DNA from: Macrostomum lignano
Taxonomy: Eukaryota
DNA: 64,000 nt
Direction of reading: 5' to 3'
NCBI GenBank assembly: GCA_002269645.1
Contig: NIVC01002508.1
Coordinates: 1-64,000, forward strand
Shown here: positions 11,205 to 55,025 of the stretch, one piece after another
Layout of the letters: each line of letters opens with the position of its first letter
How positions within the stretch are numbered: the stretch's first letter is position 1
Made by a program: the position numbers and the translations under genes
The notes under the pieces: model-generated
What the model was told of the DNA's origin: nothing
Databases searched by the model: none
What the model saw: only the letters and a program-made list of their open reading frames with translations

Positions 11205-11304
11205 AGTAGTAGTATGTTATAAGGGGCTGAGTCATCCAGCGAGCTGGCGCGCAATGCGCCCGAGCAATTAAGTGTGGCGCAGCCCCTTATAACATACTAC
11301 TACT
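11205..11304. repeat. 100-bp element with perfect 25-bp terminal inverted repeats starting AGTAGTAGT
   Basis: AGTAGTAGTATGTTATAAGGGGCTG (11205-11229) and its exact reverse complement (11280-11304), around a GC-rich 50-nt loop. Confidence 0.9.
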
Positions 11305-15230: not shown

Positions 15231-15589
15231 GGCGCTACTACTACTGCAGTACAGTACTACTACTTGATTTACAGTGAGATGCCCGCTACTTTTCCAGCAG
15301 TACTGCTGATTTTCTAGAGGCATAGTTGCCACTTGCTGGTTGCCACCAGCAAAATACGCAGGAACGGCAACATTTATCAGACGGCAGCATCGGAGCAAAA
15401 TGATTTTAAGAAAAGAGTGTGCTCTTATTTCATGCTCATTAAGTTCTTTGCTTGTTAATAGGATGATAGAATAAGGTATAAGTATATTTTGTCGCATTTT
15501 CTACATAAAAAGTTTGTGATTGTTGACCAGTGACAGTCAACAGTCAATATATATATACAGTATATATTTAGTTCAACATTAAAAGCAAG

Positions 15590-23803: not shown

Positions 23804-24289
23804 CTATAAAGAAGGACAATATGCTTTTAACTCTAATTGATGCAGTACAATTTTTTAATCTGATGAAAATTTTATACTATTTTAACTGCTATATAGTAGC
23901 GAGTAGCTTAATACAAGTGTAAAGCGCTCTTAAAAGTAAAAATAAAGGGAATGCAGCTGAAAGTTATTACACACCCTAAACAAAGAGACAAAAGGGCACA
24001 TGAAATTCGGACATATGTCGAATTTGCATTGTGTACTTTCAGAGCAAGAATCATGTCTTTACCCCTCCAGAGTCCAGGTAATCGAGAAAACGTAAATTAC
24101 CAGTCCGGAATTGTAACAGAGAGCCTAACAGAGCCTAACAGCCTAACAGAGAGGCTACTACCAATGACGCATTTTTCCGGGCGTTTTGGAGGTGGGGTGG
24201 GTGTCAACCCACCCCGCCTCTCATTGGCTGACGCGCGCCGCAGGTGCATGGCGCCAAGCGCCATCCAGGCGCGCGGCGCCAATCAGACG

Positions 24290-24590
24290 CCCATGCCGCA
24301 GGCGCACCCTCCCGATATGTGCACTCTCCCCAGCCGCAGGCGACCCTCCCGATATGTATGCCGCAGGCGCCCATGCCGCAGGGGTGCCCTCCCGATATGT
24401 GTGCGCACTCTCCCTCCCGATATGTATGCCGCAGGCACACCCTCCCGATATGTACCTCGATATGTATGCAGCAGGCGCCCATGCAGCAGGCGCCCATGCC
24501 GCAGGCGCCCCGAGTGTACACTCTCCCGAGCCAAAGGTACACTCTCCCTAGTACACTCTCCCCAGTACACTCTCCCGATATGTAGTCAAT
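24290..24590. repeat. Degenerate GC-rich tandem repeats (CCCTCCCGATATGTATGCCGCAGGCG; TACACTCTCCC)
   Basis: Units directly visible. The overlapping ORFs are repeat artefacts. Confidence 0.85.
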
Positions 24591-24875
24591 GATATTAGGC
24601 TAGTGAAAACTACTTTTAGTAGGTGAAGTTGTGTATATTTACATAAAAAAGTAGGCAAAACATATTGGTAGGTGTAAATATTGGTGCATATAGGTATATG
24701 AGCAGCAAAAAAACGCACAATGTAGGCGCATATTATCGATATATTGACAGAAAAGCGGGTGAAATAATGAATAAAACATAGGTGGAAATACACAGTAGAT
24801 ACAAGTATAATGCACACACTCAAGATTCAAATTATGTAGGTGCATAGGCTAAAATACACACAATGTAGGTGCAAA

Positions 24876-25480
24876 TCTCTACATATAAAAATCAAAACTC
24901 TGTCTGTCTGTCTGTGGACAAATTACTTCGCTATGGACTCCCAAACCGCTCAACCAAATGACACCAAACTTTACACCCACCCTAAACTTACTACGGAGAA
25001 TGTCTTAGGCTACCTTTAAATTTCCTAGACTCAAGTCTTCCTACCTAAAAGTACAAAAAACTGCTCAAAATGCGCGATTTTTTCACTTAATCCTCCATAG
25101 CGCCGCTCCACTTCTACCGATTCTCTTCAAATTTGACACAGATAATCTTTAACTATTTTGGCACAATCATGTAAAATTTCGAGTCTCAAAGTTAATCCTG
25201 AGCGGTGCTGTGAACTTTTAAAGTTTGGCTGTTTTTTTCAGCGTAGCAACCACCCCAACCTCCGCCCGCCTGCCTCTCTTTCCCGATACCGATCTGGGCC
25301 CAGATGTGTAAAAGGGTTTCAAAATTGACTAACTTTCAGCTGCCATAAGTTTGCTCCACGTAAAGCGATTGACTTCAAACTTGACACAATTCTTCATTGA
25401 CTCATTCTCTATCTAAATGTAAAGTTTAAACTCTGTAACTCAACCGAAAAAGAAACTGTAAGCATGTGAAGTTTGTCTGC
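24876..25480 (+). mobile_element. Helitron-like non-autonomous element (5' end)
   Basis: A|TCTCTACATATAAAAATC followed by (CTGT)n and CCGCTCAACC...CCAAACTTT, typical of animal non-autonomous Helitron/DINE-like 5' ends. The 3' boundary is not determined. Confidence 0.45.
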
Positions 25481-26059
25481 TTTTTCTGTTGTTTGTGCCA
25501 CTCACTTACTCATTCCCCCAGAGCCAGACGAAGGGTCAGGCGATAGGACTGAATGTACATAGCAAATGTACAGTGTTTTGGAATTCCACCCCGAGAGTGG
25601 AGAGGCTACGTTTAGCCATAACAGTTTAGTGAGAAATTCTAACCACTGCCCTCCCCTCTGTATTGGCAAACTCTGCAGCTGTTTAACAGTGGATGGCAAA
25701 TCAAGGCAATCCAGCATGGTTTGTAAAAGCGAAAGATTTATGAAAAGGCGATGCAATGCAATAAAACCCTACTAAATTAGTCACAGTCACACCATGGAGA
25801 TTTTAAGTTTCTCTTAAAAGTACTTTGAAATTGAAATGGCCTCCTAAAAAATGTGTATTTCCTTGGTTGTTAGACTGATGCAGACTGCAGTGGAGCTGAA
25901 GATACAAAAATTCTTTTCAGGGCTTGCAAATTGGCAAGAAAGATGACATATCAAAGCATGAGAACAGCCATGAGAGTACTACGTCCCACAAACTGGCTTT
26001 CCAAGCAGGAATGGGCAGACTTTTACCTTTAAGTCCAGAAAAGAATCCAGCTTATGACT

Positions 26060-26959
26060 GAGGGGCAGTTGAGAGTGGGGAGAAGAAGGAATAGACTATT
26101 CGAAAAGAGAGGAGAGGTGAGAGAGGGAATAAGAGATAAGATAAAAGATAATAGGAGAGATGAGGGAGTGAGGACGATGAGAGGAGAGAGTAGAGAGGAG
26201 CGAGTAGAGAGGAAAGAGTAGAGAGGAGCGAGTAGAGAGGAGAGAGTAGAAGAGCGAGTAGAGGGGCGAGTAGAGAGGAGAGAGTAGAGGAGCGAGTAGA
26301 GGAGCGAGTAGATAGGAGAGAGTAGACAGTAGAGTAGATAGGAGAGAGTAGACAGTAGAATAGCGAGTGGAGAGGAGAGTGTAGAGGAGCGAGTAGAGAG
26401 GAGTTAGTAAAGAGGAGAAAGGAGAGATAAGAGAGAGAATGGAAGAGAGAAGAGATAAAGTTGTACAGATGAGAGAGGTGTAAGGAGAGATGAGAGATGA
26501 GAGATGAGAGATAAAGGAGGAGAGTGGAGAGAGAAGAGACGAGACATGGAGAGAGTATATAGAAGAGGGAAGAGAAGAGAAGAAAGGAGAAAGGAAAGTG
26601 AGGAGACAAAGGAGGTGAAAGAAAAGAGTACAGAGGACAAAATGAGAGAACATTAAGACAGTAAAGATGACAGATGAAAGAGGGGGATGAGCTGAGAGCA
26701 GAGACGAAAATGAACAGACGAGAGATGGGAGAGTAGAGAGAACAGAAGAGAGATAAGAGAGAAGAGATTACAGAGACGAGAGGAGAGACAAAGGGAGAGA
26801 GAAGTGAGTGAGGCGAGAGGAGAGAAAAGAGGAGAATGGAGGGGAGAGAGTAGAGAGGAGAAGAAAGATGGGAGAGGAGAGATAAGAGAGAAGAGATTAC
26901 AGAGACTAGAGGAGAGAGGAGAGACAGGGAGAGAGAAGAGGAAATAGGAGAATGAAGAG

Positions 26960-27010
<51 letters not shown>

Positions 27011-27560
27011 CAGAGCAGATAGAAACGAGAAGAGATAAGAGAGAAAAGATAAAAGAAGAGAAAGGAGAGATAAAAATGCAGACCAGAGAGAAGAGAGGTG
27101 AGGGAAGAGACGAGCGACGAGGGGAGAGAGAAGAGAGAGAGGAAAGAGTAGAGAGGAGAGAGGAGAGAGTTAAGAGAAGAGAGAAAAGAATAGAGAGGAG
27201 AAGGAAGAGACGAGAGAAGAGGGGGAGAGAGGAGAGAGAGGAGAAGAGAGAAAACGAAAAAGTAGAGGAGAGAGGAGAGGAGAGAGAAAAGAAAAGGGAA
27301 GAGATGAGATAAGAGATATGAAAGAGAAGAGAGATGAGGGAAGATACGAAAGAAGATAGGAGAGAGGAGAGGAGAGAGAAAACGAAAAGTAGAGAGGAGA
27401 GAGAGAGAAAAGAGTAGAGAGAAGAGACAAGAGATAAGAGAGATGAAAGAGAAGAGAGATGATTGAAGATATGAGAGAAGAGAGGAGAGAGGAGAGAAGA
27501 GAGAGGAGAGACGAGGGACGAGAGAGAAGAAAGGAAACAGAAGAGACGATAGAAATTTTA
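26060..27560. repeat. Purine-rich (GA/GGAGA) low-complexity tract including a (GA)n microsatellite at ~26960-27005
   Basis: Near-pure A/G on the plus strand. Confidence 0.95.
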
Positions 27561-28119
27561 AAGGATCCAAGGGACATAGGGAGAGTCAGGGAGAGGCCAG
27601 AGTTTGCCAATACATGTTTTAGAGTCAGACAGACATTGCCTGACATTCTGTGAAGTACCCCAGTCCAGTCAACAATATCAATGTTTGCCTCAAATCCTAA
27701 TTTTACACGAATGTGCTCCATTTTATGTCTACCTCTATCCTACTAACTATTAACAAGTTTTTGTTTCAGATGGGCTCAGATTTCAGAATACATGCAAAAA
27801 TAGTTCCGGGGATTGGAATTCCCCGGGTTCAAAATCCGCGGGTTTCAACAGCTTGTTAAGTATAATGCGGGAAAATTACATAGCATATAATGCAGGCGCA
27901 GTTTAAACAATACATTTTGCATATTAACCCACAGGCACAAAGTATATATCGGTGCATAGGCTAAAATACACACACACACTGCAAATTGAGTATAATGCAG
28001 GAAAATTGTGACATATACAACATATGTATGCAAAATTAAGCATATAATGTAGGTGCAAAGTAAAAACAAGCAACAGGCCCCCTAGTAAAGAGACACGCCC
28101 CCGCATTCCTCCCCAGGGC

Positions 28120-28880
28120 CGGGGGATCCCAAGTACAGTGCGGGCAGAGAGGAGAGAGAAATTCCATTCCTCCCCAAGCCCTAAATAAGGTTTTTTTTCA
28201 AGGGGATCTCAAGTACAGTGCATGCAGAGAGCTATTTTCCTCCCCAATGGGGGTTATCAAGGACCCCTTACCAAGTACGGTGACGGCAGAGTAACCGCAT
28301 ACAAATAGGGTTATATTCAGGGGGGATCCCAAGTACAGTGCGCTCCGGGGTTGAGGTGTCAAATGAGTGTTTTATCACTTGAAGGGATCTCGCCAGAATG
28401 TACAGTTGGGGCGAGGTGTCAAATGGGAGTTTAGGACTCCTCACCTAGTACAGTGTGGGCGGAGAGCTGTTTTTCCTGCCAGGGGCTTCCAAATAGGGTT
28501 TATTATTCAAGGGACCCCTCACATTGCACAGTGCGGGCAGAGTAACAGACCGCATACAAAGAGAATTCCTCCCATGGAGCCTCAAATAGGGTTATATTCA
28601 AGGGACTGTGGGGGATCCCAAGTACAGTGCATGCAGGCAGAGAGTAATAGAGACCGCCCCCAATGTACAGTGCGCTCCTGGGTGTCAAATGATGAAGGGA
28701 TCCCGCCCCAATGTATAGTGGAGGTAGAGTAACAAACCGCATACAAAGAGAATTCCAGTCAAACTTTACCGCAGCTCCCAACCCCCAATGAGGGATTTTA
28801 GTGGATCCCCAGAGGGTAGCTCTCCAAGTTGAGGGATCCTCCAGTGTGTTGCGAGGCCCAAGTACAGTGCAGGCAGAGAG
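28120..28880. repeat. Degenerate array of ~9-10 units with core CCCAAGTACAGTGC(G/A)...GCAGAG
   Basis: Cores at ~28128, 28208, 28272, 28328, 28446, 28525, 28618, 28661, 28709, 28858. Confidence 0.75.
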
Positions 28881-29372
28881 TAATAGAGTACAAAGAGAAA
28901 TTCCCTTATCAGTCAAACTCGAGCGCGATCTTCAGCCAGGGCAGTCTCCTCCTCATCAGCGCTCTCGAAACATCTGTCAAAGTAAATGTTGGAAATGACA
29001 AGCTAAGGCGAGCAATTGCTATGAGACGAGAAAACGATAGCTCTGAGCCCACGCTCCGTGCGAAACTATTTATTATCAACGATAAAGCACGAACCCGCGA
29101 CAACCCCCCAACCCAGGACTAAAACTCACCGCACTGCACATCAGAGCACGATGACAATAATAATTTGATACGTACACTCAGACTGAACAAAAGTACAAGC
29201 ACCAGTGAAATAAGCAATCAAATAATAAACAGTGCGAAGCCCCGCCAAAGCCTAACAGTGAACAATATTTTAGTGTTCAATATAGACAGATTATATCTAA
29301 TTTATATGCAATTTATATGAAATTAAGCTTACCAAAATCGGGTTCGCGTTGTACGGATGCGGCACGCCTCAA

Positions 29373-29870
29373 TTAGCAACCCTCTTCAAACAGATTTCCC
29401 CAAGGGTAGGGTTTGATGCTGTCAAGGCAGTCCTGCAGATTGTCCTCTGTCTTGGCTCGCTTCGCAGGCGGTGGGGCTTCGGGTGCCGGCTTGAAGAGCT
29501 TGTCCAAACGGGAGGCAAACATCCGGCGCCACAGTTCAGGCGTGAATTCGATCGTGTAGCGCCAATTAAACTTTGGATCCCGATTGAGCCAATTGCGCCG
29601 CAAACGAATCCTACCCTGTGAAGCTTCGATAGCCTTGAAACTGCCCAACACGACCCTCTTGTCCACGTGAAGGCGGGCAGCAGCCTCCAGGTCAGGGCGC
29701 GCAGCTTCGAGCTTCTTCCACTCTCGCTCGCTCAAGTAGATTGCAGGGAAGCCGTCCTTCCACACTCCAGCCTCGTCTGTGTAGAGCCGCCGAATTTCAA
29801 TCAAGTTGTGTTCAGTTTCAAATGTGGGCTTCCGCGCCACAACGTTTTCGTATAGAGAGATAGAAGACAT
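29373..29870 (-). CDS. PC4-like ssDNA-binding protein (possibly two PC4 folds) with basic NLS-like tail
   Basis: IEIRRLYTDEAGVWKDGFPAIYLSEREWKKL matches the PC4 pattern (VDIRE.Y.D..G..KP...GI.L..EQW..L). A second similar block reads IRLRRNW...YTIEFTPELWRRM. Tail PPAKRAK. ORF is intact. Confidence 0.7.
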   Translation of the reverse strand: MSSISLYENVVARKPTFETEHNLIEIRRLYTDEAGVWKDGFPAIYLSEREWKKLEAARPDLEAAARLHVDKRVVLGSFKAIEASQGRIRLRRNWLNRDPKFNWRYTIEFTPELWRRMFASRLDKLFKPAPEAPPPAKRAKTEDNLQDCLDSIKPYPWGNLFEEGC

Positions 29871-30107
29871 GATTTAGCAGCAGAGAGCTCTCTGACAGCC
29901 GTGCAGCGCCTTATATACCCCCGGATGGAGGGTGGGGTGGGTGGTGATTTTGGGGGTAATTTTTGATGATTTTGGTTGGTTTTTGGCGATTTGACCAATA
30001 GCAGGCGAGCTAAGCAGATTTTTTGGTATATATACAGACCCCCAGAGCCAGGGTAGAGAGATAATCCTTCTCTCTCCGCTCGCTCTCTCACGCTCTCTGT
30101 TTGCAAA
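29871..30107. promoter_or_regulatory. Compact bidirectional promoter
   Basis: TATATAAG on the minus strand ~40 bp upstream of the PC4 ATG, GTATATATAC on the plus strand ~75 bp upstream of ATG 30108, with a G-rich tract between. Confidence 0.5.
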
Positions 30108-33100
30108 ATGGCTAAACGCAGCGCCGCAGCAACTGCTTTCCTGGCTGATAAGAGGCAGCGTCTTTATGGTAAGTTTTAATTAATTTCTGGCCGTCTAGTC
30201 TAGACTAGAGTTGCTAGGGTAGGGTACTGATAAGAATTGGCAGGGGTGAGCTGCTGCGACAGCTGCAGGGGTTTAGACAAGTTCCAGCAGGATGTGCGGG
30301 GACAGACTGATAAGAAATTGGTGCAGAGAGGGTGCTGCCCAGACAGGCCGCAGCTGGGGTGCAGATAAGAAATTGCTGCAAAAAAAGAGGGAGTTGCTGC
30401 GGTAGGGTCTGTGGGGCAGCAGAGTAAACAACAAAGACTGAGACTGCTGCGACAGCTGCAGGGGTCTAGACCGGAGTTGCTAGGGGTAGCGCGGTCGGGG
30501 TGCAGATAAGAAATTGGCAGGGTCTGTAGCAAAAAACTACTGGGGTGTGGTTGAGGAGGGCTAGACACGTTTCAGCAGGGTTAGCAGCAACAGCTGCAGG
30601 GTCTGTGGGAGAGGTGCAGCAGAGTAAACAAAGACTGATAAGATTTTGCCTCGGGTAGGGTGTTGTGCGTGTCCAGACAGGCGGGGGGTGTGCGGCAGCA
30701 GGGTACTGATAAGAAATTGCTGCAAAAACAGACAGAGAGTTGCTAGGGTTAACAGCTGCAGGGAATTGGAGGGGTGCAGCAGAGTAAACAACAAAGACTG
30801 GGGCTGCTGCGACAGCTGCAGGGGTCTGGTGGCGGAAGGGTACGTTGCTGATAAGAAATTGGTAGGGGCTGTAACAGATAATCGTTGGGGAGGGCTAGAC
30901 AAGTTTCAGCAGGGTGGCCCTTTCGGGGTGGATGTACTGCCCGAGGCGATCCGTGCCTTGAACCGTCTGCATCCAGCCACGATTTTGGTGTACGAGTGTA
31001 CCGGGCAGAGGAGGCCAACAGGTGCATCTATGAGCTGCCGCACCGAGATTCTGCACCTCCACCTCGTAGAGCAGCACTTCAATGTGGTCACCAAGCTGCC
31101 TGCGTTTTTCGGGGCCCGCCGCTACTGCGCCAAGTGCGAGATGGCCTACGACTGCAATTATGAGAAGCACAAGTGCGCTAACGCTTGTAGCACCTGCAAG
31201 ACTCCGGGCTCCAACTGCAAGGCTAACCGCGCATATGTAAGATGCCATGATTGCGGGCTAAATTGTTATAATGCTCAGTGCCTAGAGAATCACAAGCGCA
31301 AGAATAAGGCGGGTAGATCGCGCTGTGATTCAGTCCACGTTTGCGGCACGTGTGGCTATCTAGAAGAACTGAAAGTAGGCCAGGCCCCCGAGCATCAGTG
31401 CGGGTACGCCAAGTGTCCAGTCTGTAAGCAGTACGACGAAACGGCCACCCACGAGTGCTTTGTCACCCCGCCCAAAGCTAAAGAGTCTAGCGCGCCGTAC
31501 GTTTACTACGATTTCGAGACGTACGTAGACTCTGGCAAGCAGCACCGGGTACACTTGGTTACGGCTGCCACCTCCTGCGAGGCGTGTCCCAAACTCTTCC
31601 CTAGGCCCCGCTGCGGCGCGTGCGGGGGCTACACAGCTCAGCCAATTGCATTGCGGGACGCAATCTGGCGCTGGTTTTTACGAGCTGTGTCTCGCACAAT
31701 GACTGTGCCTGTGGGATGCGAGAGTTTGTATCAGTCGGGCCTCACTCTATCGATGCCTTTTACTGCTGGCTGACTAGTGTCTTCAAGCAAAGGGCAATTG
31801 CTATTGCGCACAACGGCTCTGCGTATGACGCATTCCTCCTGCTCGGCGCCCTACTCAACGGACTGGCCAAGAAGAAGCCACAAGTGATCTTCCAGAACAG
31901 CCGCCTAATGTACATGAAGTGCGACAAGATCACGTTCAAGGACAGCCTCAACTTTATCCCTATTGGTCTGGCGCAATTCCCAAAGGCGCTTGGTTTGGGC
32001 ACCCAACTGACCAAAGGAGATTTCCCGCACGTGTTCAATCAGCCGCAAAACTGGGGTTACGTGGGGCCCTACTGCTCGATTGATATGTACGGAGGGAAAA
32101 AGAACAAGCAGCACGACTCCATCGCCGACTGGCTGGCCAAGCAGGAGGGTCGAGTGTTTAATTTCAACAAGGAGTACCTGGACTATTGCCTGCAGGACAC
32201 TCTAATTTTGCGGGAAGGCTGTCTTAAATACGCCTGCCTGATTAAGGACATTTGCGGACTGGACGCATTTGTCCAATCCAACGCCATTGCGGGCTTGGCT
32301 ATGGCTGTATTCACCACCAAGTTTATGGAGCCCAACACTCTTGGGGTGATTTCCCGCCGATCAGTTGTGCAGTCGCACAAGGCGCGGTGCTGGCTTGCAC
32401 ATTTGAATGCAACCGAGTTTGGCGGCCGGTTGAGGACAGCCGATTCTGGCGGCGAGGCTTTCGCCATGGGCCGTAAGGTGGATGGCTTTGACTCGGAGAC
32501 TAGGACAGTGCTCCAGTTTCACGGCTGTTTCTTCCATGGTTGCCCAAAGTGCTTCCCCAACGGTGACGTGCTGCACCCGCTCAAGAACCAGCCAATGCGG
32601 GCGATTTATGAAGAGACTGAGCGCTTCACTGATGTACGCTGATGTACGTGTTTTGTGGGAGCACGACTATCAGGGCGAGGGAGCACCAGTTCAGTAGCCT
32701 ATTCGCCTGGAGGAAGCCCTGTTTGGCGGCCGCACCGAGGCTTTTGTCCCGCACGCCGAGGCCACTGAGACTGGAGCTGCGCTATCGGGATGTGGTAAGT
32801 TTGTACACTTTTCAAAATTTCTCATGTACACACACACACACAGTTGACATGCGTTTGAGTTTAGCCTACTTATCCCCTAGGTGTCGCTCTACCCGACTGT
32901 CAACAAGTTTGACAAGTACCCTGTCGGGCACCCGGTTCACCACCCCGAGCCTCATCTACTGGATGAGCAGCAGCTGGCCCGGTATTTTGGTATCGCCGAG
33001 GTATCGATTCTGCGCCAACCAATCTCCACATTCCGCTACTGCCCGCCAAGATTAGCAAGAAGCTGGTTTTCGGCCTCTGCCGCGTCTGCATGGAGACACA

Positions 33101-33597
33101 GTGCAGCAGCGAGTGTACACACTCTGACGCTGAGAGAATGCTCCGCGGCACGTGGTCGACCCCAGAGCTCCACAAAGCCCTGCAGTTGGGTTACAAGCTG
33201 CAGTCAGTTCATGCCCTGGCCTATTGGACCAAGACTCGCACGGGCTTGTTTGCAGACTATGTAAACACTTTTTTAAAGCTCAAAGCCGAGTCTAGCGGTT
33301 CGCCGGGAATGACTGAGGACGCCAAGGCTGCCTACATGGCCAGCTTTTTCGAGCGCGAAGGCGTCCGGCTTGACAAGGTGGAAGAGAATCCTGGCCTGCG
33401 CTTTGTTGCCAAGATTTTTCTACACTCGTAAGTTGGGGAGACTGTGCTAGTAGCCAGATATTCGCAATATACAAAAACATATTTTTCCCGGGGAGACTGT
33501 GTTTTTCTACTTACAGTAGCCCGATATACAAAAATTTATTTTTCCCTGCAGGCTCTGGGGCAAATTCTGCCAGCGCGACGACTTGACCTTGACTTGA
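30108..33597 (+). pseudogene. polB: Group-1/alpha-type protein-primed DNA polymerase B with spliceosomal introns; disrupted and truncated after motif B
   Basis: Cys-rich N-terminus (HFNVVTKLPAFF..RYC..C...H.C); ExoI YYDFET; ExoII AHNGSAYD; KDSLNF; KGDFPH; ExoIII YCLQD; Vsr-like KVDGFD...QFHGCFFHGCPKCF; ALFGGRTE; motif A YRDV|VSLYP split by intron 32795-32880; motif B KIFLHS|LWGKF split by intron 33428-33551. Probable first exon 30108-30168 (GTAAGT donor). Lesions at ~31625, ~32635, TAG ~32695, ~32770, ~33013. No motif C. Confidence 0.9.
30200..30900. repeat. Degenerate tandem array (CTGATAAGAAATTG / GCAGCAGAGTAAACAACAAAGACTG / GCGACAGCTGCAGGGG / CTAGAC blocks)
   Basis: Blocks recur ~5-6 times between the putative first exon and recognisable pPolB sequence. 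Confidence 0.75.
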
Positions 33598-34928
33598 CGC
33601 GACGACTTGCCAGCCGACCAGCCAGTCAGCAAGCAAGCCAGCCGACCAGTCAGCCAGCCAGCCAACCAACCGACCTGCCGAACAGCCGACCAGCCAGTCA
33701 GCAATCAAGCCAGCCGACCAGTCAGCCAGCCAGCCGACCAGCCAGCCAGCTAGCCAGCCGAGCCGTAAGCGAGTCAGCCAAAGTTACGAGGAGACGTTTT
33801 TGACTTACCTAACCAACCGACCAGCTAAACGGCGTCAAAGTTCTGCATCGGTGGATACGGAGCGAAAGCTGTTCACCGTCAGAACTGACAGATCGGACTA
33901 CGCTATCTGGACCTATGAGCGTGACAGCTTGCATGGCACACGCTGGATTTCAGCAAGTGTACGTGTCGAAACTGAATCACTCGTTGATGATTAAAATTAA
34001 AATCTCATCATGCATTCCCCTCGTTCACTGCTGCAGATCCCCAACGCCTACATAGCTGTACTGGCATGTCAGGCTAAGTGTGGCATTACGCATCTGTACA
34101 ACTACGAGGTGGACACACTAGGGGACGCCATCCTGCAAGACGAACTTCAGACGAAGCTTGTGAATGCTAATAGGAAGGCAGGCTCCCGCATTCTTGTCGG
34201 CCCTCTGCTACTTAGCCATCACTTTTGCCTGCTCGTCATAGACTTACGACTGCGCAGTCTCGTTGTCATTGACCCGAAGGTCAGGCAGAGCGACGAGCTG
34301 ACTAAGAAATTCGTTATCGCTGTCAAGTAAGCTAAAGTTCTGTTGAAACAGTAAACTTGCTCCATTTCGACATGAAGGTCCAAAAGTTTGCGAAACACCC
34401 ACATTGCTACTTACCCCTAAACACCCACCTAATCTGCACGCAGCCAACTGCAACATCTTACTGGCTGGCCGACCCTGGACAAGCCTGCACGCATGCCAGG
34501 GCACTTCGTTCAGGAGGACAGCTACAGCTGTGGCATCCTGGTGTGCCTCTTTGCGGAGAGCGTCATTTATACGAAGCACACCGTCCTGCCAGAAGTCGTT
34601 CACAACCTCCCTTACCAGAGACTGCGCATCTGGAATACCTTGGTGAAGGCCGCCATCGGCTCAAGTGGCCTGTGCTTCACCTGTGGCGAGGAGGAAGTTT
34701 TTTTCGACTCGGCGGCACAGGAAGCCGGATGAATGGGTAAGAAACATTTGCACACAGCAGCAGTACACGTGTCAAAATTACCTTCCCCATGCCCCTTTAT
34801 CTTCATCACAGATTGCCTGTGATTCCTGTAAAGCCTGGCATCACCAGTTCTGCGTTGGAATCGCAAAGCTAGCACCGTCAAGGGTGTGGCACTGCCCCAC
34901 TTGCCGGCTCGAAAGGCAGACAGACTGA
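33593..34928 (+). CDS. Spliced Ulp1/C48-like cysteine protease + PHD finger; 5' end missing, one frameshift
   Basis: Introns 33959-34036, 34327-34443 and 34737-34811 (all GT..AG, in phase). Spliced product reads RWISAS|IPNAYIAVL, GPLLLSHHFCLLVIDL...VIDP (H, D), HFVQEDSYSCGILV (Q, C), then CFTC...DEW|IACDSC..WHHQFCVG...WHCPTC (PHD). +1 frameshift in T7 at ~34700. Confidence 0.8.
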
Positions 34929-35820
34929 TTGACGAATGGTAATTATCATGATCTGACTAGTCTGTTTCGAGTATCAGCTTGCAGCATTTACTTGCAGCAA
35001 TTTATAAGTACGCTCGTACAACACTTCTCTATAAAATCCACTGAAGTCGTTCCATTTTTGTCTTTATTCAACCGATAATTTTACGCAAGCATTAGATACA
35101 AAAATAAGTATGTCAAAAAAAGTCATCACGATTAATTATGTTACAAACTGTCTTGAATTTCATTAATTCAAGAATAAATTCATTTTGTTGGAGACCACTC
35201 AGTTGCGACATTGTCGTTTTTCACCGTTTATTACTGACATGCCCAGTCCTCTTATGTTTTATCCACAGAACTTACACAAAATGCTCAATCAGCGTTCTCT
35301 TTTTAGAATATAACTGAGTAGAAATAGATACGCGCTCACACTACTTTGTTGATGAAGAGGAATGAGTAGCCATATGTTAGTCTATGGCCAAAACATCGGG
35401 GTTTTCGCGAGTGCCTATGAGGCGAAGGCTTAAAGTTAGTTCTGTGTAAGTTCTGTGGTTTTATTTGCTGTTTAACGTAATGTTATCTTCATCAACTGAT
35501 TGCAATCTTTTGTCGTCAAGGACTATATTTTCTTAACTTGTAATAACAAATACATCGATAACGAAGGCTGAATAATTGAAAACTACGTTTGCATATAACA
35601 CGAGAGATTAAGAAAAAGAACATAAATTACACGTACGAATTTTACTGCCTTAATTGAGTTTAAAGGCAATAAAAACAGGGACTCAGCATACCAATAGCAT
35701 ATAAAAATGATAGCGCCCTATTGTTGTCAAAATCAATTACTGACACTGCGAATGTTGCACATTACTGAAAACAATTATTGCTAGCTTCATTACAACAGTT
35801 ATGTGCTTGCGACCTGCCTT

Positions 35821-36981
35821 TCACTTTGATGCCGATCTGCCGGTGGCCTTCGACTTCGATCCTGATCCGCCGGTGGCCTTCGACTTCGATCCTGATCTGC
35901 CGGTGGCCTTCGACTTCGATCCTGATCTGCCGGTGGCCTTCGACTTCGATCCCGATCCAGTGTTAGCCATTGATTTGCTGACGACGATGCTGCTTTTCTG
36001 CCATTTAGTTTTGCATGCTCTGTTTCTTATTTTCGTAGACGGAAGACGAGCAGCTTCCGAAGCTTCTCTTACGGCAGCTGCCGAAGCTTCTCTTACGGCA
36101 GCTTCCGAAGCTTCTCTTACGGCAGCTTCCGAAGCTTCTCTTACGGCAGCTTCCGAAGCTTCTCTTACGGCAGCTTCCGAAGCTTCTCTTACGGCAGCTT
36201 CCGAAGCTTCTCTTACGGCAGCTTCCGAAGCTTCTCTTACGGCAGCTTCCGAAGCTTCTCTTACGGCAGCTTCCGAAGCCTCTCTTACCGCAGCTTCCGA
36301 AGTCTCGCTTACGGCAGCTTCCGAAGCCTCTTGAATGTCATCATGATCTTGAAACTCTAGAGAAGCGGTTTCGTCACCTGCAGACTCAACATTTTCATTG
36401 ATCTCGCAGTCGTACGTGCTTTTGCCGAACTCAATTTCGGAAACATTACCAGAATTTATACTAAATTTCGTTGCTTTAACGCACTCTGCTTGAATCTGCT
36501 TAGTGCAGGCGATTGAAGCTCGAATGAGGCCTGCCAATGCAGGAGAAGCAAACGACTCTGCTCGCGTTAAATTCTTTAACGCCTTGATGATTAGTCCGTT
36601 AGCCATACCATCATCGTTACGCTCAATTACATCTACGCGCTTCCAATGGTGACCTTCAAGCCAGTCTCTGCCAGCCTCAACAGCACGAAGACGGTTCGAA
36701 TAATCTTGTCTCGCGTCGGACGATGTCTTTTTTTCAAAAAAACAGCTACGCCATCTACTAACGCCAAAGAAAGGCCTCCACAACTTAGATATTTGATGTC
36801 ACTCCCAGGAACTGTTGGCAGATTGGATATTGGATTCTAAAGCATTAACACTCAGATAACGAGCTGCTTCGCGTACGTTGCTAACGTTGACATTTAAACC
36901 AACAACTAGATCGACATCAGGGCAATCGCGCGGCAAGGGCCCCTGAGCTTCGAAAATGACGAACGGATCTTTGACGAAAGC
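35821..36981 (-). CDS. Terminal exon of an unknown protein with EASEAAVR (24-bp, ~11x) and SGSKSKATGR (30-bp, ~4x) repeats; one in-frame stop
   Basis: Splice acceptor TTTCAG at 36982. 66 in-frame codons (one TGA) precede ORF 35821..36783. The repeats keep the frame. Confidence 0.5.
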
Positions 36982-37039
36982 CTGAAATCAATTTTAGAGC
37001 AAATTTTACTGCACGATACTCACTCAGTACAAAAAAACA

Positions 37040-37700
37040 TTGATACTATTGATACTGGTAAAGAAGGCATACTTAAGGTGTCTAGGGCTAGTTTTATTCT
37101 AATTAAACAGCTAAAGGAGAGCTGTTTAAAGGAGAGCTGTTTGCAGAATGGACCTGCACATTATAGTAAACATATGGAAACATGAAAGCATGAAAATATT
37201 GTGTTTTCATGTTTAGTACTATCTATAGATAGTTTAAAGTAAAGAAGGTATTGATACTGGTAAACAAGGCATACTTAAGGTGTCTAGGGCTAGTTTTATT
37301 CTAATCAAGCAGCTAAGGTAAGAATGGACCTGCACATTATAGTAAACACATGGAAACATGAAAGCATGAAAATATTGTGTTTTCATGTTTAGTACTATAT
37401 ATAGATAGTTTAAAGTAAAGAAGGTATTGATACTGGTAAACAAGGCATACTTAAGGTGTCTAGGGCTAGTTTTATTCTAATCAAACAGCTAAGGTAAGAA
37501 TGGACCTGCACAGTATAGTAAACACATGGAAACATGAAAGCATGAAAATATTGTGTTTTCATGTTTAGTACTTTATAGATAGTTTAAAGTAAAGAAGCTA
37601 TTGATACTGGTAAACAAGGCATACTCGAATGGACCTATAAACATATAAAAACATAAAAGCACAAAAATATTGTGTTTTCATGTTTAGTACTAATAGTAGC
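37040..37700. repeat. ~166-bp tandem repeat, ~4 copies
   Basis: GAAGGTATTGATACTGGTAAACAAGGCATACTTAAGGTGTCTAGGGCTAG...GGAAACATGAAAGCATGAAAATATTGTGTTTTCATG repeated. Confidence 0.9.
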
Positions 37701-39858
37701 AGTTTACGTGAAAAGAAGGCTAAGAAAAATGGGGCGTGGTAGGTGCTTCCCGTGTCCTCACTCTTGGATCACTCACAAGTTCATCTCTTTCAACCTGATG
37801 GTCACGCATAATACAACTCGTGTTATGTGAAATGTTTAAACAATATAAGAAGGATAGTTAAGAATTTTTAGTATATGGATGTCAAAAGATTAATTTATTC
37901 AAATAAAATAGCTAAAGCTAAGGCTAAATAAATTGTGGACCTTATTAACTAGATTATGTATTAATATTATTGAAAATATGAAAATTATAATCTAACAGTA
38001 GTTTTGTCTTATAGTATTCAATGATAGGCCTAAGCGTAGAAAAGGTAGACTTTTGGAAATATAGGAAAAGGGTAAAGTAAGTTTAATAAAATTGTATGCA
38101 TGGCTTTCATTATATTTCATTATGTATATTATTATCAAATAACCTATTGAAATAGGTGTGATATGCCATTCAAGTCTAGAAAGAAAGCAATAATGAAAGA
38201 ATAGTTTTATAAAAAGGTAATCAATTCATATTTATTTAGATTTTAGTACTAGGTTTGCTAAAAAGAACATTAAATAATTAAATAATTTTATTCAAATTGT
38301 TATTAGTGGCAATATTTTGAGCTTTGAGATTTGACAAATAAATTTATATAGCTAGCTATAAAGTACAGGAGAGTAATAGCCCTCTTAGCCTAAGAAAGTA
38401 AATAAAGGCCTATACAAAGCATAACTTTTTTATAAATGTTAAAGTCTAAAACTTAATATGTAACATGTTGGATGGATATATAATATAGTTGAAAGAAAAA
38501 ATGATATTTGCGTAATGCCAAAGCTCATGTAAGACTTTGCTTTATACTTAATGTAATAGTAATAGGCATAGATACCTACCGACAAACCATTTTTAGTATT
38601 GGGAGGTTGAATGTAAAACTTAAAATATGTAAAACCTATATAAGTGAGGTGGGGATGGAGAAAGAATTTTCCTTCGCTTGGGTTTACTTTGAAATTTGCT
38701 GACACCAGTGAGGTGGGGCGGATTCCTCGTTTGAATTGCCGCCGACGTTGAGTTCGCACGAGTAAAGCCGGAAAATTCGCGCAGACGAATCACAACGTGA
38801 TCCTTCTCCTTTTACTCTGACAGCCGGGTTCTCAAGTCCGGGGGGAGGGTAGTCGTAATCGTAGCGGAGCGGTCGTGTAACGGCGCGGTCGTTCAAAGCG
38901 ATGAAAACACCGGAGATGCAGACACCGTAAATTATGTGTCGATTTGCTGAGCTTGTTACTTTCAGTAGGGTAGAGCTGCCACCACCGTAATTTACGTATT
39001 ACGGAACGAATAAGTCTCTGGGCTTTCTTTGAGCTGAGAAAACTTGGTTATTTAACGCCCCACGGGCAAAAGGCTCAAGATAGGCTATGGCTTAATGTCA
39101 ACGAATAAAAATATTAATAAATTGGCGGGATATTATTATTATTTATTAGCTTGAGCAGGATAAATTGATAAATTACTTATTGACGACGATGAATTCGGCG
39201 TGCCGCGGTGCGACGACTATTTAACTAGACAAGTGAAAATTGACAAACTTAACCAAACTAAAGATAGGCAAGACAAAGGTGAACTAAGCAAACAAAACGA
39301 GAGAGCGAGAGAGGGAAGAGGGAAAGAGGAAACAAGGGAAAACAAAAAAAACCACAAACAAAAAAAACGCACAAAACCCAGAACATAAACACACACACCT
39401 ATCCCAGCGGAAAAACCAACGTTGATTCAACGTTGTTGCCCTCCGTTGTCCCTCCGTTGGGCGTGTCTGGAGGAAAATCCGTTGATACAACGGCGGTTTA
39501 CCAACGGCAGTCCAACTGCGAATCAACGCTATTCCAACGGTCAAAATATTGTTAGAGGTGCTGATCCACGTGAAATAAAGTATGAAAAAAGCCAATTTTC
39601 GCAATCAAATGTGTCATGTCACTCATGTGTCCAAAAACGTTACATTTTAAAGTTGAGACATTTGGCAAAGATCTATATATTTGTCAAATGAAATTACAGC
39701 AAAGCAAAAAAATTTCTCGCATGCATACGCGTTTAAAGTCTCAGGGTTAGGTATAAGTGTAATCATTGGCAATTATTGCAAACTAAATTACTTGTTTATA
39801 GGATGATATGATGGCTTCAACAACGTTTTTTATAAATCATTTCTTTATTTTTGAATAA

Positions 39859-40529: not shown

Positions 40530-42360
40530 TAGATTACTGCACTCGATAAGCTAAGGATTATTGCTCTTGGCAAACCAAGGAATACTGCACTCGATAAGCC
40601 AAGGATTATTGCTCTTGGCAAACCAAGGATTACTGCACTCGATAAGCCATGGATTATTGCTATTAATAAACCAAGGATTACTGCACTCGATAAGCCAAGG
40701 ATTATTGCTATTAATAAACCATGAATTACTGCACTCGATAAGCCAAGGATTATTGCTATTAATAAACCAAGGATTACTGCACTCATAAGCCATGGATTAT
40801 TGCTATTAATAAACCAAGGATTACTGCACTCGATAAGCCAAGGATTATTGCTATTAATAAACCAAGGATTACTGCACTCGATAAACCAAGGATTATTGCT
40901 ATTAATAAACCAAGGATTACTGCACTCGATAAGCCAAGGACTATTGCTATTAATAAACCAAGGATTACTGCACTCAATAAACCAAGGACTATTGCTCTTG
41001 GCAAACCAAGGATTACTGCACTCGATAAGCCAAGGACTATTGCTCTTGGCAAACCAAGGATTACTGCACTCGATAAGCCATGGATTATTGCTATTATTAA
41101 ACCAAGGATTACTGCACTCGATAAGCCAAGGATTATTGCTATTAATAAACTAAGGATTACTGCACTCGATAAACCAAGGATTATTGCTATTAATAAACCA
41201 AGCATTACTGCACTCAATAAACCAAGGACTATTGCTATTAATAAACCAAGGATTACTGCACTCAAAAAACCAAGGACTATTGCTCTTGGCAAACCAAGGA
41301 TTACTGCACTCGATAAGCCAAGGATTATTGCTATTAATAAACCAAGGATTACTGCACTCGATAAGCCAAGGATTATTGCTATTAATAAACCAAGGATTAA
41401 TGCACTCGATAAACCAAGGATTATTGCTATTAATAAACCAAGGATTACTGCACTCGATAAACCAAGGATTATTGCTATTAATAAACCAAGGATTATGCAC
41501 TTGGCAAACCAAGGATTACTGCACTCGATAAGCCAAGGATTATTGATATTAATAAACCAAGGATTACTGCACTCAATAAACCAAGGACTATTGCTATTAA
41601 TAAACCAAGGATTACTGCACTCAATAAACCAAGGACTATTGCTCTTGGCAAACCAAGGATTACTGCACTCGATAAGCCAAGGACTATTGCTCTTGGCAAA
41701 CCAAGGATTACTGCACTCGATAAGCCATGGATTATTGCTATTAATAAACCAAGGATTACTGCACTCGATAAGCCAAGGATTATTGCTATTAATAAACCAA
41801 GGATTACTGCACTCGATAAACCAAGGATTATGCACTTGGCAAACCAAGGATTACTGCACTCGATAAGCCAAGGATTATTGCTATTAATAAACCAAGGATT
41901 ACTGCACTCAATAAACCAAGGACTATTGCTATTAATAAACCAAGGATTACTGCACTCAATAAACCAAGGACTATTGCTCTTGGCAAACCAAGGATTACTG
42001 CACTCGATAAGCCAAGGACTATTGCTCTTGGCAAACCAAGGATTACTGCACTCGATAAGCCATGGATTATTGCTATTAATAAACCAAGGATTACTGCACT
42101 CGATAAGCCAAGGATTATTGCTATTAATAAACCAAGGATTACTGCACTCGATAAGGCATGGATTATTGCTATTAATAAACCAAGGATTACTGCACTCGAT
42201 AAGCCAAGGATTATTGCTATTAATAAACCATGAATTACTGCACTCGATAAGCCAAGGATTATTGCTATTAATAAACCAAGGATTACTGCACTCGATAAGC
42301 CATGGATTATTGCTATTAATAAACCAAGGATTACTGCACTCGATAGCCAAGGATTACTGC
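40530..42360. repeat. 1.8-kb minisatellite of related 24-bp units (CCAAGGATTACTGCACTCGATAAG / CCAAGGATTATTGCTATTAATAAA / CCAAGGACTATTGCTCTTGGCAAA)
   Basis: Units alternate A-B or A-C, with recurring higher-order blocks. Confidence 0.97.
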
Positions 42361-42379
42361 GCTTGATAAGCTTGGCTAC

Positions 42380-42620
42380 ATGTATAGGATTATTTCTATC
42401 CAGGGATGCTTGCTATTTAGGGATTCTTGCTATGTGCAGGATGCTTGCTATCTGGAAGGATGCTTCTACATTATTTGGGGTATGCTTGCTATCTGCAAGA
42501 TGCTTGCTATCTGCAAGATGCTTGCTATCTGCAGATGCTTGCTATCTGGGTGGATGCTTGCTAGGAGTATTAGGGGATGCTTGCTACTGGGGGGATGCTT
42601 GCTGTCTTGGGAATATTTTC
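42380..42620. repeat. Degenerate GATGCTTGCTATCT tandem repeats
   Basis: About 9 visible cores. Confidence 0.85.
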
Positions 42621-42646
42621 TATTTAGGGGTAATGACTAAAATTCA

Positions 42647-42710
42647 TGAGAGCTAGCCTAGAGGTAAACAGACTAAACTGCTAAATGCAGGGACGATGGT
42701 TCGAATTTTT
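42647..42710 (+). mobile_element. tRNA-derived SINE-like head, copy 2
   Basis: TAGCCTAGAGGTAA...GGTTCGAAT. Homologous to 40399-40465. Confidence 0.55.
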
Positions 42711-42769
42711 AGAGAGTAGAGTTTTTTTAATTAAAGCCTTTTAACGCCAAGACAAAAAAAATTATGGAA

Positions 42770-43640
42770 GCGCCATGTAAACAATCATACAAGCGTCATG
42801 TAAACAATCATAGAAGCGTCATGTAAACAATCATAGAAGCGTCATGTAAAAATCATAGAAGCGTCATGTAAAAATCATAGAAGCGTAATGTAAACAATCA
42901 TAGAAGCGTCATGTTAAAATCATAAAAGCGTCATGTAAACAATCATACAAGCGTCATGTAAACAATCATAGAAGCGTCATGTAAAAAAATCATAGAAGCG
43001 TCATGTTAAAATCATAAAAGCGTCATAAAAAATCATAGAAGCGTCATGCAAGCAATCATAGAAGCGTAATGTAAACAATCATAGAAGCGTCATGTTAAAA
43101 TCATACAAGCGTCATGTAAACAATCATACAAGCGTCATGTAAACAATCATAGAAGCGTCATGTAAAAAAATCATAGAAGCGTCATGTTAAAATCATAGAA
43201 GCGTCATGTAAACAATCATAGAAGCGTCATGTAAACAATCATAGAAGCGTCATGTAAAAATCATAGAAGCGTCATGTAAAAATCATAGAAGCGTCATGTA
43301 AACAATCATAAAAGCGTCATGTAAACAATCATAGAAGCGTCATGTATACAATCATAGAAGCGTCATGTAAACAATCATAGAAGCGTCATGTAAAAAATCA
43401 TAGAAGCGTCATGTAAAAATCATAGAAGCGTCATGTAAAAATCATAGAAGCGTCATGTAAAAATCATAGAAGCGTCATGTAAAAAATCATAGAAGCGTCA
43501 TGTAAAAATCATAAAAGCGTCATGTAAAAAATCATAGAAGCGTCATGTAAACAATCATACAAGCGTCATGTAAACAATCATAGAAGCGTCATGTAAAAAT
43601 CATACAAGCGTCATGTAAACAAGCATAGAAGCGTCATGAA
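42770..43640. repeat. 22-23-bp minisatellite ATCATAGAAGCGTCATGTAAA(C)A, ~38 copies
   Basis: Directly visible. Confidence 0.97.
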
Positions 43641-44605
43641 AAAATTATAGAAGCCTCATATAAAAACTAATGAAAGTGTGTCATTTAAAAAATTAAGAAG
43701 CATCATGGAAGAATAAAAGAAGCGTAACGTAAAAATCAAAAGAAGCGTCATGTCAGACATGAAAGAAATGTCATATAAAAATTAAATGAAGCTATAGTAC
43801 AGTGCTGTGCTGGGGAGAATTACTGAGACGTCAAGGCTCACAGAGAATAACTGAGATTACAGTGGGGTTTCTGAGATGTTAAAGCAAAAGTCAGAAGCTA
43901 CTTCAAAGTACATGTACTTTACTTAAGTTTTTTATTGCATTCTTTGTTGGCTTGCCACGGTGGGGGGGGCGCTGATAGAAGAAGAGTCATGTAAAAATAA
44001 AAGGAGCACTATGTATACATAAAATAAAAGTCATGTCATAGTTAAAAGATTCATTTGGGAATTGCTACGATGTCAAAGCTTGGAGGGAATCGTTATAGTG
44101 CTGTGATTCTTAAAGAAGGAATCACTTAAATGCCAAGGCTTAGGGAAGAAGAATTGCTGTGATTTCAAGGCTTTAGGTTGGGTGAAAGTTAGGTTTACGT
44201 CAGGTTTGGGTTGAGGGTTAGATTTTAGCGCGTTTCAAGGTTAACAGGGGATTTTTTAGATTTCAAGGTTTATGGGGGGCATCGCTGACATGTCAAGGCT
44301 TACGAGGGGAATCTATCTATCTATCTATAGCTGAGATGTCAAGGCTCACGGGGGAATAAATGAGATGTCAAGGCTAATGTCAGAAGCTACATGTAGTTTA
44401 TTGGAAAAAAGTTATTACATTATTTGTTGGCTCCTCACGGGAGGGATCGCTGATAGAAAAAGCGTAATGTAAAAAAAAAGAAGCTTCATGTCAAAGTTAA
44501 GAGATTCATTTGGGAATCCCTACGATGTCGAGGCTTGCAGGGAATCGCTATAATGCTGTAGTAGTGCTATAGACTCTTAGAGAGAATTACTGAAATTTCA
44601 ATGCT

Positions 44606-44639
44606 TTAGGGTTAGGGTTAGGGTTAGGGTTAGGGTTAG
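44606..44639 (+). repeat. Interstitial (TTAGGG)5 tract within a region of CTGAGATGTCAAGGCT repeats
   Basis: Directly visible. Confidence 0.9.
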
Positions 44640-55000: not shown

Positions 55001-55025
55001 TTTCAAGCAAACTCTGTAGTTTCAA
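52014..55025 (-). pseudogene. MULE-type DDE transposase with acidic N-terminal repeats and start of a Ulp1-like C-terminal domain; one in-frame stop
   Basis: ORFs 53865..55025 and 52014..53834 are in frame (GYI*SIGVSPFHVYMVCEDQL). Catalytic LHLDATGG, VIDFSWAL, CSNH (CxxH), TAENHF. 33-bp repeats EH(L/P)ADEQEE(D/E)S at 54595-54810; 9-bp QPR repeats at ~52345-52415; C-terminal SLCGRNEMDIQVIYAYI. Confidence 0.82.

Follow-up and report, generated by a model that had tools for sequence, protein, structure and literature searches.

A chimeric locus in Macrostomum lignano with a spliced pPolB element that is probably one half of a bipartite Maverick

Composition of the locus

We analysed a 64,000-nucleotide stretch of the Macrostomum lignano assembly (contig NIVC01002508.1, hereafter the window). 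The following features were found in it:

24154..24875, no strand: left TIR of the polymerase element, outer part, aligning with the ends of intact copies
24876..27857, no strand: unrelated ~3-kb repeat inside the left TIR, foreign to the polymerase element
27856..28986, no strand: left TIR, inner part, containing a 12-mer array and matching both arms of intact copies
29373..29870, minus strand: PC4-like gene, predicted ssDNA-binding protein, intact frame (Pfam, atlas comparison, dN/dS)
29871..30107, no strand: divergent intergenic region, candidate promoter
30108..33589, plus strand: pPolB, broken copy of a seven-exon gene (Pfam, GT/AG boundaries, copy comparison)
30108-30168, plus strand: pPolB exon 1
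~30909 to 32794, plus strand: pPolB exon 4
32881-33427, plus strand: pPolB exon 5
33552-33589, plus strand: pPolB exon 6, first bases only
33590..33605, no strand: junction filler made of short copies of adjoining sequence, seen at the break
33606..38643, plus strand: right-hand part of a Mutator-like DNA transposon, without transposase core and both ends (similarity to C2608)
34001..34928, plus strand: Ulp1-like protease and PHD exons (Pfam, motifs)
35821..36987, minus strand: convergent repeat-rich ORF, split here
37047..37625, no strand: 176-bp tandem array within the Mutator-like element

The block was evidently a chimera, in which a truncated polymerase element was joined to the right part of a Mutator-like transposon. 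Positions 24154-33589 corresponded to a truncated copy of a multicopy polymerase element whose full length, in the intact copies compared, was 8.7-9.8 kb. Its left TIR opened near 24154 with an (ACT)2-type end, the first base of which was altered. The ~3-kb repeat inside this TIR had further copies on C24, C2095 and C2284, and was missing from C2719, a 99% duplicate of the locus. The junction cut pPolB inside an exon, and the core of the Mutator-like transposase had been removed. We infer that a deletion repaired by end-joining made the junction at 33590-33605; the Ulp1-PHD block is, by all appearances, a chance neighbour of pPolB that was brought in by deletion. An earlier note on this DNA had taken two tandem arrays to bracket the block. 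The left one (28.1-28.9 kb) proved to be the inner left TIR of the polymerase element, and the right one, with a period of 176 bp and not 166, belonged to the Mutator-like element. As that note had stated, the block contained no integrase, capsid, ATPase or adenain.

The Mutator-like element

Positions 33606-38643 matched C2608 at 96% over 4079 bp and 97% over 637 bp. The full element was 9.1 kb long, with ~80-bp inverted ends and 9-bp duplications in both full copies (C2608 and C2284), and the Ulp1-PHD part recurred at 96-99% on C2608, C2284 and C870, without pPolB or PC4. A spliced Ulp1-PHD gene had been proposed for the window; the PHD domain was found there (Pfam, E 5e-6) and the Ulp1-like frame had His, Asp, Gln and Cys motifs (Pfam C48 only at E 0.13, in the C2608 copy), but the gene was frame-broken relative to C2608. 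The same was true of the convergent repeat ORF, which was present but broken in comparison with the single 405-codon frame on C2608, and for which Pfam and PHROG gave nothing informative. DDE-like and SWIM-like motifs were seen by eye in the transposase, for which Pfam contained no MULE match and a PDB sequence search no solved structure. The full element to which 33606-38643 belongs is probably tied to Mutator-like elements carrying Ulp1 proteases, with which it shares short G-rich inverted ends, 9-bp duplications, Ulp1-like and PHD domains, and a putative DDE-like transposase with a SWIM-like finger. The Mutator-like element of the window appeared to be an ordinary one.

A multicopy element with PC4-like and spliced pPolB genes

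Intact polymerase elements, flanked by a 6-bp target duplication, had long inverted repeats and encoded a PC4-like protein and a pPolB interrupted by six introns; ends, TIRs and duplications could be defined from multiple copies, a check that the earlier note had suggested. We identified 16 duplication-bounded polymerase elements, nine of family A and seven of family B, none of which (0/16) contained an integrase or virion gene. The PC4-like ORF of the window matched Pfam PC4 at E 0.022, its family-B relative passed the cutoff (E 1e-5), and its atlas comparison gave 0.88 to PC4 clusters, below the 0.9 mark. Compared with other family-A copies, its dN/dS was 0.12-0.30. Only one of the seven family-B polymerase copies contained PC4, which is therefore not a fixed part of the element. 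The divergent ATGs (29870 and 30108) were separated by the 237-bp gap described previously, with TATA-like motifs on both strands.

DNA_pol_B_2 (Pfam) matched pieces of the window pPolB (E 3e-13 and 9e-5) and GT/AG exon boundaries were present, in agreement with the intron-containing gene proposed for this locus. However, this copy was broken: exons 2-3, most of exon 6, exon 7 and also the right inverted repeat of the element were lost, and frame changes occurred at about 31630, 32600-32770 and 33013. The six GT-AG joints of pPolB were spliced in runs X1, X5 and X9, which were classed as RNA by the tool's guess only, and none was spliced in X15. Within pPolB, we recognised from motifs what are presumably vOTU-like and VSR-like stretches. 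The nearest outside pPolBs were 26-35% identical, and some of these were labelled cnidarian or fish. An extra ORF in the 9.4-9.8 kb family-A copies had no family match. Judged from its copies, the capsid-less, integrase-less element with PC4 and a spliced pPolB is real, multicopy and selected. This core of the replicative element proposed earlier was thus retained, but not as a stand-alone element.

A partner element with integrase and capsid genes

A partner element of 10.2-10.6 kb ended in the same terminal ~32 bp as the polymerase element, with 6-bp duplications, and encoded an integrase, a double jelly-roll capsid, a penton-like protein, a protease and a packaging ATPase. The integrase matched rve (E 1.7e-9) and conserved the D, D, E motifs; at pLDDT 55, its structure model was not good enough for comparison. 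A PDB sequence search with the capsid was empty, but its predicted structure (pLDDT 95.7) matched the double jelly-roll capsids of PBCV-1, iridovirus and mavirus at E 1e-18 to 1e-13. The protease shared 29% identity (E 3e-15) with one of Maverick type, and the ATPase matched that of a resident Maverick (E 6e-17). The penton-like ORF was assigned by position and a weak match (E 0.009). The labels PZ and PW are used tentatively; the PZ-like ORF matched an ORF of a resident Maverick (E 2e-6). Unlike pPolB, the genes of this virion segment were single frames without introns. Three small ORFs (136, 175 and 242 codons) were also present, the longest with no usable match in the atlas, and a non-pPolB replication helper may be among them.

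Eight duplication-bounded virion elements (three A and five B) were identified, and pPolB occurred in none of them. Likewise, no polymerase, either as the element's own exons or as group-1 pPolB pieces, was detected at any of the 19 virion loci examined (9 + 10). In a quick tree, the virion-segment integrases grouped with six environmental integrases (SH-aLRT 100), apart from those of the resident canonical Mavericks. The environmental relatives were located on short contigs. Scans of viral and metagenome contigs for pPolB, integrase and capsid detected no relatives with context; they returned one fragment of a Maverick and two polinton-like contigs that were complete but distant.

Shared ends, satellites and element size

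The repeats of the family-A polymerase and virion elements were alike only over bases 1-32. The terminal tract was hypervariable, yet its variants crossed classes in our table of end variants: the end of virion element C807 differed from that of polymerase element C3425 at 1 of 30 bases, and the end of virion element C1361 was identical to that of satellite L115. A second, diverged pair (family B) repeated the split, with polymerase-only and polymerase-less elements that had matching ends. For a ~80%-identical integrase family we predicted family-B ends and no polymerase, and the prediction held; clean family-B ends with duplications were found at five of seven fetched loci, and pPolB at none of the seven.

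Non-coding fold-back satellites had the same ends as the polymerase and virion elements, and both non-coding and polymerase-broken fold-back molecules were inserted with clean 6-bp duplications. The arm of the main satellite contained pieces of the virion-A repeat as well as the outer repeat of the polymerase-A element, and L119 was half polymerase element and half satellite. A search of the ~9-kb palindromes for coding sequence matched no Maverick gene. Although 43 of 46 bounded elements were 8.1-10.6 kb long, the size argument is soft, since 15 of these belonged to one satellite family, the sequence retrieved for most was a 10-kb stretch, and atypical loci sampled later measured 2.7, 4.0, 6.7, 7.7, over 8.8 and 11.3 kb, the last being the largest uninterrupted element seen.

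Linkage and selection

No fused copy was found: none of 97 polymerase matches was located within 40 kb of the 56 matching integrases, and the two sets of positions had three contigs in common, with the nearest pair 44 kb apart. pPolB and integrase occurred together in none of the 46 bounded elements. Both polymerase searches scored every candidate (134/134 and 132/132). Between families A and B, dN/dS was 0.06-0.15 for pPolB exons where dS was estimable, about 0.03 for the capsid and 0.08-0.14 for the integrase, with dS above 1.1 in this comparison. Purifying selection acts on both halves.

The same assembly contained numerous young and complete canonical Mavericks, which encoded group-1 pPolB, integrase and capsids and ended in (AGT)2, the reverse of the split-pair ends. 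We had considered these (AGT)2-ended Mavericks as the polymerase-less partner and dropped them; their longer copies carry their own group-1 pPolB.

A probable bipartite Maverick

Because they have the same ends and complementary gene sets, the two elements are likely one split Maverick. We therefore regard the PC4-pPolB and virion elements as probably forming a bipartite Maverick, the halves of which would complement each other in trans; both complementation and particles are inferred here. The polymerase element is most likely one half of this split Maverick, and not a decayed Maverick with captured cargo, as had been offered as an alternative. Host RNA polymerase II would transcribe and splice pPolB, which would then prime strand-displacement replication at the shared ends of any polymerase, virion or satellite molecule, with PC4 as a single-strand binder. 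Template switching could generate the fold-back satellites, and the integrase of the partner would insert any molecule with the shared ends. Each molecule, up to ~11 kb, might be packaged singly in the partner's capsid, which is the least certain step; the conserved virion genes and the upper size near 11 kb bear on packaging only indirectly. Some RNA and ssDNA viruses have multipartite genomes, and the two elements described here, like the segments of such viruses, share terminal signals and carry complementary genes. We lean slightly towards the broader reading of a dsDNA virus of the double jelly-roll lineage that is active, multipartite and integrating, derived from a Maverick that split long ago and whose segments are packaged and inserted separately. 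In this reading, the satellites are defective fold-back forms, and all classes have in common a terminal tract that is shuffled rapidly.

Several other explanations were weighed. The two elements could be independent, each a partial parasite of the canonical Mavericks, with the polymerase element borrowing their integrase, the virion element borrowing their polymerase, and the shared ends being a relic of common descent. Potential hosts are indeed numerous, young and complete, but we consider this unlikely, since canonical ends are the reverse of those of both elements, the ends of the A and B pairs match each other, and hypervariable end variants common to the polymerase, virion and satellite classes point to continuing exchange; in addition, the virion-segment integrases are only 35-37% identical to the canonical ones and form a separate clade. 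Deletion from a full-length ~19-kb Maverick, either unassembled or present only as free virus, could also give rise to both types. With 5269 contigs, the assembly is fragmented, and Mavericks are expected to have non-autonomous derivatives, of which there are many in the canonical families here. However, one parent would have left the whole inverted repeat in common, and only 32 bp are; about 100 polymerase and 56 integrase positions gave no linked pair; the split is present in two families whose synonymous sites are saturated, and the genes kept are under purifying selection; and intron gain is confined to the polymerase gene. This origin is accordingly quite improbable.

We give still less weight to a two-component transposon whose halves complement each other only within the germ-line nucleus, with particles absent or dispensable. 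A spliced, host-like pPolB gene and the loose lower size limits would fit it, whereas conservation between A and B is highest in the genes for capsid (dN/dS about 0.03), protease and ATPase, and no uninterrupted element exceeded the 11.3 kb noted above. The single self-synthesising element of the earlier note, in which a SUMO protease-PHD gene and a repeat-protein gene would be coupled to pPolB and an SSB, is refuted by the test which that note had itself set. Its genes adjoin in the window and on the duplicate C2719, but this synteny did not recur in other copies: each half occurs many times alone, with its own ends and with duplications of 6 versus 9 bp, and nine bounded family-A polymerase elements held no window sequence past 33589. 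The joint itself falls inside a pPolB exon, with the transposase core gone. There is also no basis here for the suggested role in escape from SUMO-dependent silencing, as Ulp1-PHD belongs to a separate 9.1-kb Mutator-like element and recurs in it without pPolB or PC4.

Comparison with known systems

The proposed bipartite Maverick resembles Mavericks/Polintons (adintoviruses, Eupolintoviridae; VSR-containing pPolB2 type) in its long inverted repeats and 6-bp duplications and, with the halves combined, in having pPolB, an rve integrase, an ATPase, an adenain-like protease, a double jelly-roll capsid and a putative penton-like protein. However, described intact Mavericks are single 13-25 kb units, whereas here the set is split over two elements of ~9-10.5 kb, and Maverick ORFs are intronless, whereas this pPolB has six introns. 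Maverick 5' ends are (AG)3 or (AGT)2 (PMC8097293), unlike the (ACT)2 or ACTACG/A-type ends found here. Bidnaviruses and the Drosophila Vesanto virus also have a Polinton-derived pPolB in a segmented genome, but these are ssDNA viruses with a parvovirus-derived capsid unrelated to the double jelly-roll, whereas the segments described here are dsDNA insertions with an integrase and a double jelly-roll capsid. Tlr elements and pPolB-less polinton-like viruses are similar to the virion segment in having integrase, ATPase and capsids without pPolB; Tlr has a superfamily 1 helicase, whereas the virion segment shows no replicase and has a pPolB partner with identical-type ends. Linear cytoplasmic or mitochondrial pPolB plasmids and transpovirons are, like the polymerase element, capsid-less replicons built around a protein-primed polymerase; they are not known as nuclear insertions that are flanked by 6-bp duplications and contain spliceosomal introns. 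No case of a split, integrating double jelly-roll dsDNA element was found in the literature searched.

Implications

If the bipartite reading is true, a virus with an undivided genome would have separated, in nature, into two parts that complement each other, and copy numbers, defective forms and end variants would all be preserved as fossils within one genome. That a viral polymerase has gained introns suggests that it is controlled through splicing by the host. With near-identical copies in a host that, from UniRef labels, is probably a laboratory flatworm, it becomes testable whether Mavericks form particles and which features of the ends their integrase and polymerase recognise. The polymerase half would escape screens in which an element must have five or more Polinton proteins. 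Environmental relatives, which agree in exon bounds and have an integrase clade to match, suggest that pipelines requiring many core genes per element have overlooked an entire lineage.

Two elements joined in the window

All genes that the earlier note had named in the window (the PC4-like ORF and, 237 bp from it in divergent orientation, pPolB, as well as the Ulp1-like/PHD region and the convergent repeat ORF) were confirmed, but not their reading as one element: copies recur apart, and the window is a deletion junction of two elements. In the genome (G000, 764 Mb in 5269 contigs), the PC4 protein had at least 53 matches including the window, that spanned 134 or more of its 166 residues at 83–100% identity (150 of 256 candidates scored). 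Of the seven PC4 loci fetched first, one (contig C2719) duplicated the entire window region at 99% identity. In the other six, alignment was confined to window 24150–33589, and each was an element of 8.7–8.8 kb, flanked by 6-bp duplications and ending in inverted repeats that reached 1.35 kb; PC4 and a seven-exon pPolB were its only genes. Copies of 9.4–9.8 kb had one extra ORF that belonged to no known family. The Ulp1-PHD DNA had 99% copies on contigs C2608, C2284 and C870, and pPolB was absent beside all three. On C2608 and C2284 it was preceded by a transposase-like frame, within an element of 9.1 kb whose inverted ends are ~80 bp long. Synteny with pPolB recurred for PC4 (six loci) and not for Ulp1-PHD (three loci); multi-copy comparison gave inverted repeats and 6-bp duplications for the PC4/pPolB part, and separate ends with 9-bp duplications for the Ulp1-PHD part. 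The four-gene block is a chance chimera; tracing its left half points to a Maverick that is likely bipartite. Other features of the window are as follows.

1–9467: AT-rich polinton-like virus fragment, unrelated to the PC4-pPolB element, with penton-like, adenain-like and F5/8 fibre-like genes, a frameshifted pPolB with an endonuclease VII domain, and convergent primase and D5-like helicase genes; no inverted repeat was found in the first 16 kb
11287–12048, 15568–16964, 47657–49585 and 52014–55043: transposase-like frames (a second Mutator-like fragment, a CxC-type transposase fragment, a DUF1258-like frame and a large transposon-like pair), labeled by eye save for one weak Pfam match
35262–35432: inside the Mutator-like element, a match to a distinct family of small non-autonomous elements, at their inverted ends
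40532–43782 and 44606–44639: 48-bp and 23-bp tandem arrays, together with a short interstitial repeat of the telomere type

The window pPolB lacks exons 2–3 and the 3' end and has frameshifts; database proteins 97–98% identical to it are labeled Macrostomum lignano, a flatworm and the likely host. On the intact copy of contig C24, GT-AG joints skipped 71, 67, 209, 70 and 737 bases, each in 2–3 sequencing runs (X1, X5 and X9, from three studies, whose RNA status is a tool's guess), and one X9 contig bridged the sixth intron. None of these joints was present on this copy in run X15. Two ORFs from environmental samples, with 66% and 61% identity, start and stop at the bounds of the 183-codon exon, and therefore the intron positions occur outside the host.

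Elements sharing the same ends

A motif from the repeat of these pol elements (family A) had 229 exact genome matches (control, 0). All 17 end pairs fetched, chosen on contig stretches without a listed pol or PC4 gene, were bounded by 6-bp duplications; 15 represented a single family (satellites) that is non-coding and largely palindromic, duplicated retrotransposon DNA filled another, and the last was short. Locus L108 (C558:43471–53355), a natural carrier of foreign DNA, is a 9.9-kb element with family ends that encloses a Gypsy-like retrotransposon piece twice in tandem. A search pattern built on the extreme end matched 63 sites, and the 18 loci fetched comprised eight palindromes, a 1.4-kb remnant and nine elements of a new type, designated virion segment. 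This 10.5-kb element has the pol-element end, 6-bp duplications and genes for a Fic protein, three small unassigned ORFs, TBP-like and PZ-like proteins, integrase, penton-like and basic core-protein-like ORFs, a capsid with a predicted double jelly-roll fold, protease and ATPase. No polymerase match was detected in the new-type loci searched. The Fic/DOC-domain gene (L136:3421–4224, contig C181; E 7e-14) lies on virion segment A and is missing from the B-type virion segments examined.

The pPolB exon search revealed 56 family A positions and 41 of a second family (B), mostly about 70% identical. Seven of nine family B loci were bounded elements of 9.5–10.4 kb that have related ends and keep the exon layout. 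In six of these pPolB is the sole gene; the seventh also has PC4 and dUTPase. In this last element the dUTPase (L088:6306–6833, contig C1263; Pfam E 3e-28) and another ORF accompany PC4; copies of the pol segment differ in their accessory arm.

A search with the virion-segment integrase gave 28 close positions and another 28 with about 80% identity. We predicted beforehand that the latter set should have family B ends and no pPolB. Five of seven loci fetched were clean 9.6–10.4 kb elements with family B ends, one had such ends without a clean duplication and one was rearranged; pPolB was found in none. Three further A-type virion loci, one cleanly bounded, also lacked it.

A probable bipartite Maverick

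The repeats of pol-A and virion-A share only bases 1–32, and those of pol-B and virion-B share 136 bp (88%); the satellite arm includes pieces of the virion-A repeat. The terminal tract differs among copies; the two ends of a given copy mostly agree, and variants of the tract cross element classes. This variability might stem from an exchange of ends during replication. Bases 8–27 are hypervariable and look modular, both ends of a copy being usually identical. Comparison of A and B indicated purifying selection on both halves, many copies being identical in protein. No pol match was detected within 40 kb of virion-segment integrases.

Shared ends, complementary genes, splicing and selection were all observed, and molecules unable to encode their own integrase are inserted. 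From the sequences, we consider it probable that the left half of the block derives from a bipartite Maverick. The absence of PC4 from most family B pol copies counts against this reading. Less probably, a helper missing from the assembly may serve the segments, or they may rely on the canonical Mavericks of this genome, which have (AGT)2 ends and their own group-1 pPolB, and whose integrases form a clade separate from those of virion segments. The latter cluster with six environmental integrases (68–71% identity), and an environmental capsid is 81% identical; these relatives lie on contigs of 1–9 kb. Canonical Mavericks with PC4 and TBP-like genes made up three or more families and had numerous deletion derivatives (L067, L069–L070, L077–L078); one 12-kb derivative is nested within a new-family element on contig C106.

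If the Maverick is bipartite, protein-primed strand-displacement replication would start from ends common to the segments, template switching would generate the fold-back satellites, integration would occur in trans and the molecules would be packaged separately. This mechanism is inferred from known pPolB biology, including the terminal protein and vOTU domains (PMC11161782). As to element size, 43 of 46 bounded elements were 8.1–10.6 kb; these are not independent and odd loci range from 2.7 to 11.3 kb, so only an upper limit is suggested.

Neither a split Maverick nor a Polinton study of Macrostomum lignano was found in the accessible portions of the literature searched (including 10.1101/2023.08.22.554363, PMC12567637, 10.64898/2026.10.13.758929, PMC11161782, PMC4028283, PMC8097293 and PMC8363768), which did not extend to the original Polinton/adintovirus papers, Repbase and most subscription journals; an earlier notice in such sources is possible. 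Within that literature, no description of the two-part architecture was found. The presence of both PC4 and TBP-like genes in canonical Mavericks suggests an ancestor with both genes, of which each half received one at the split.
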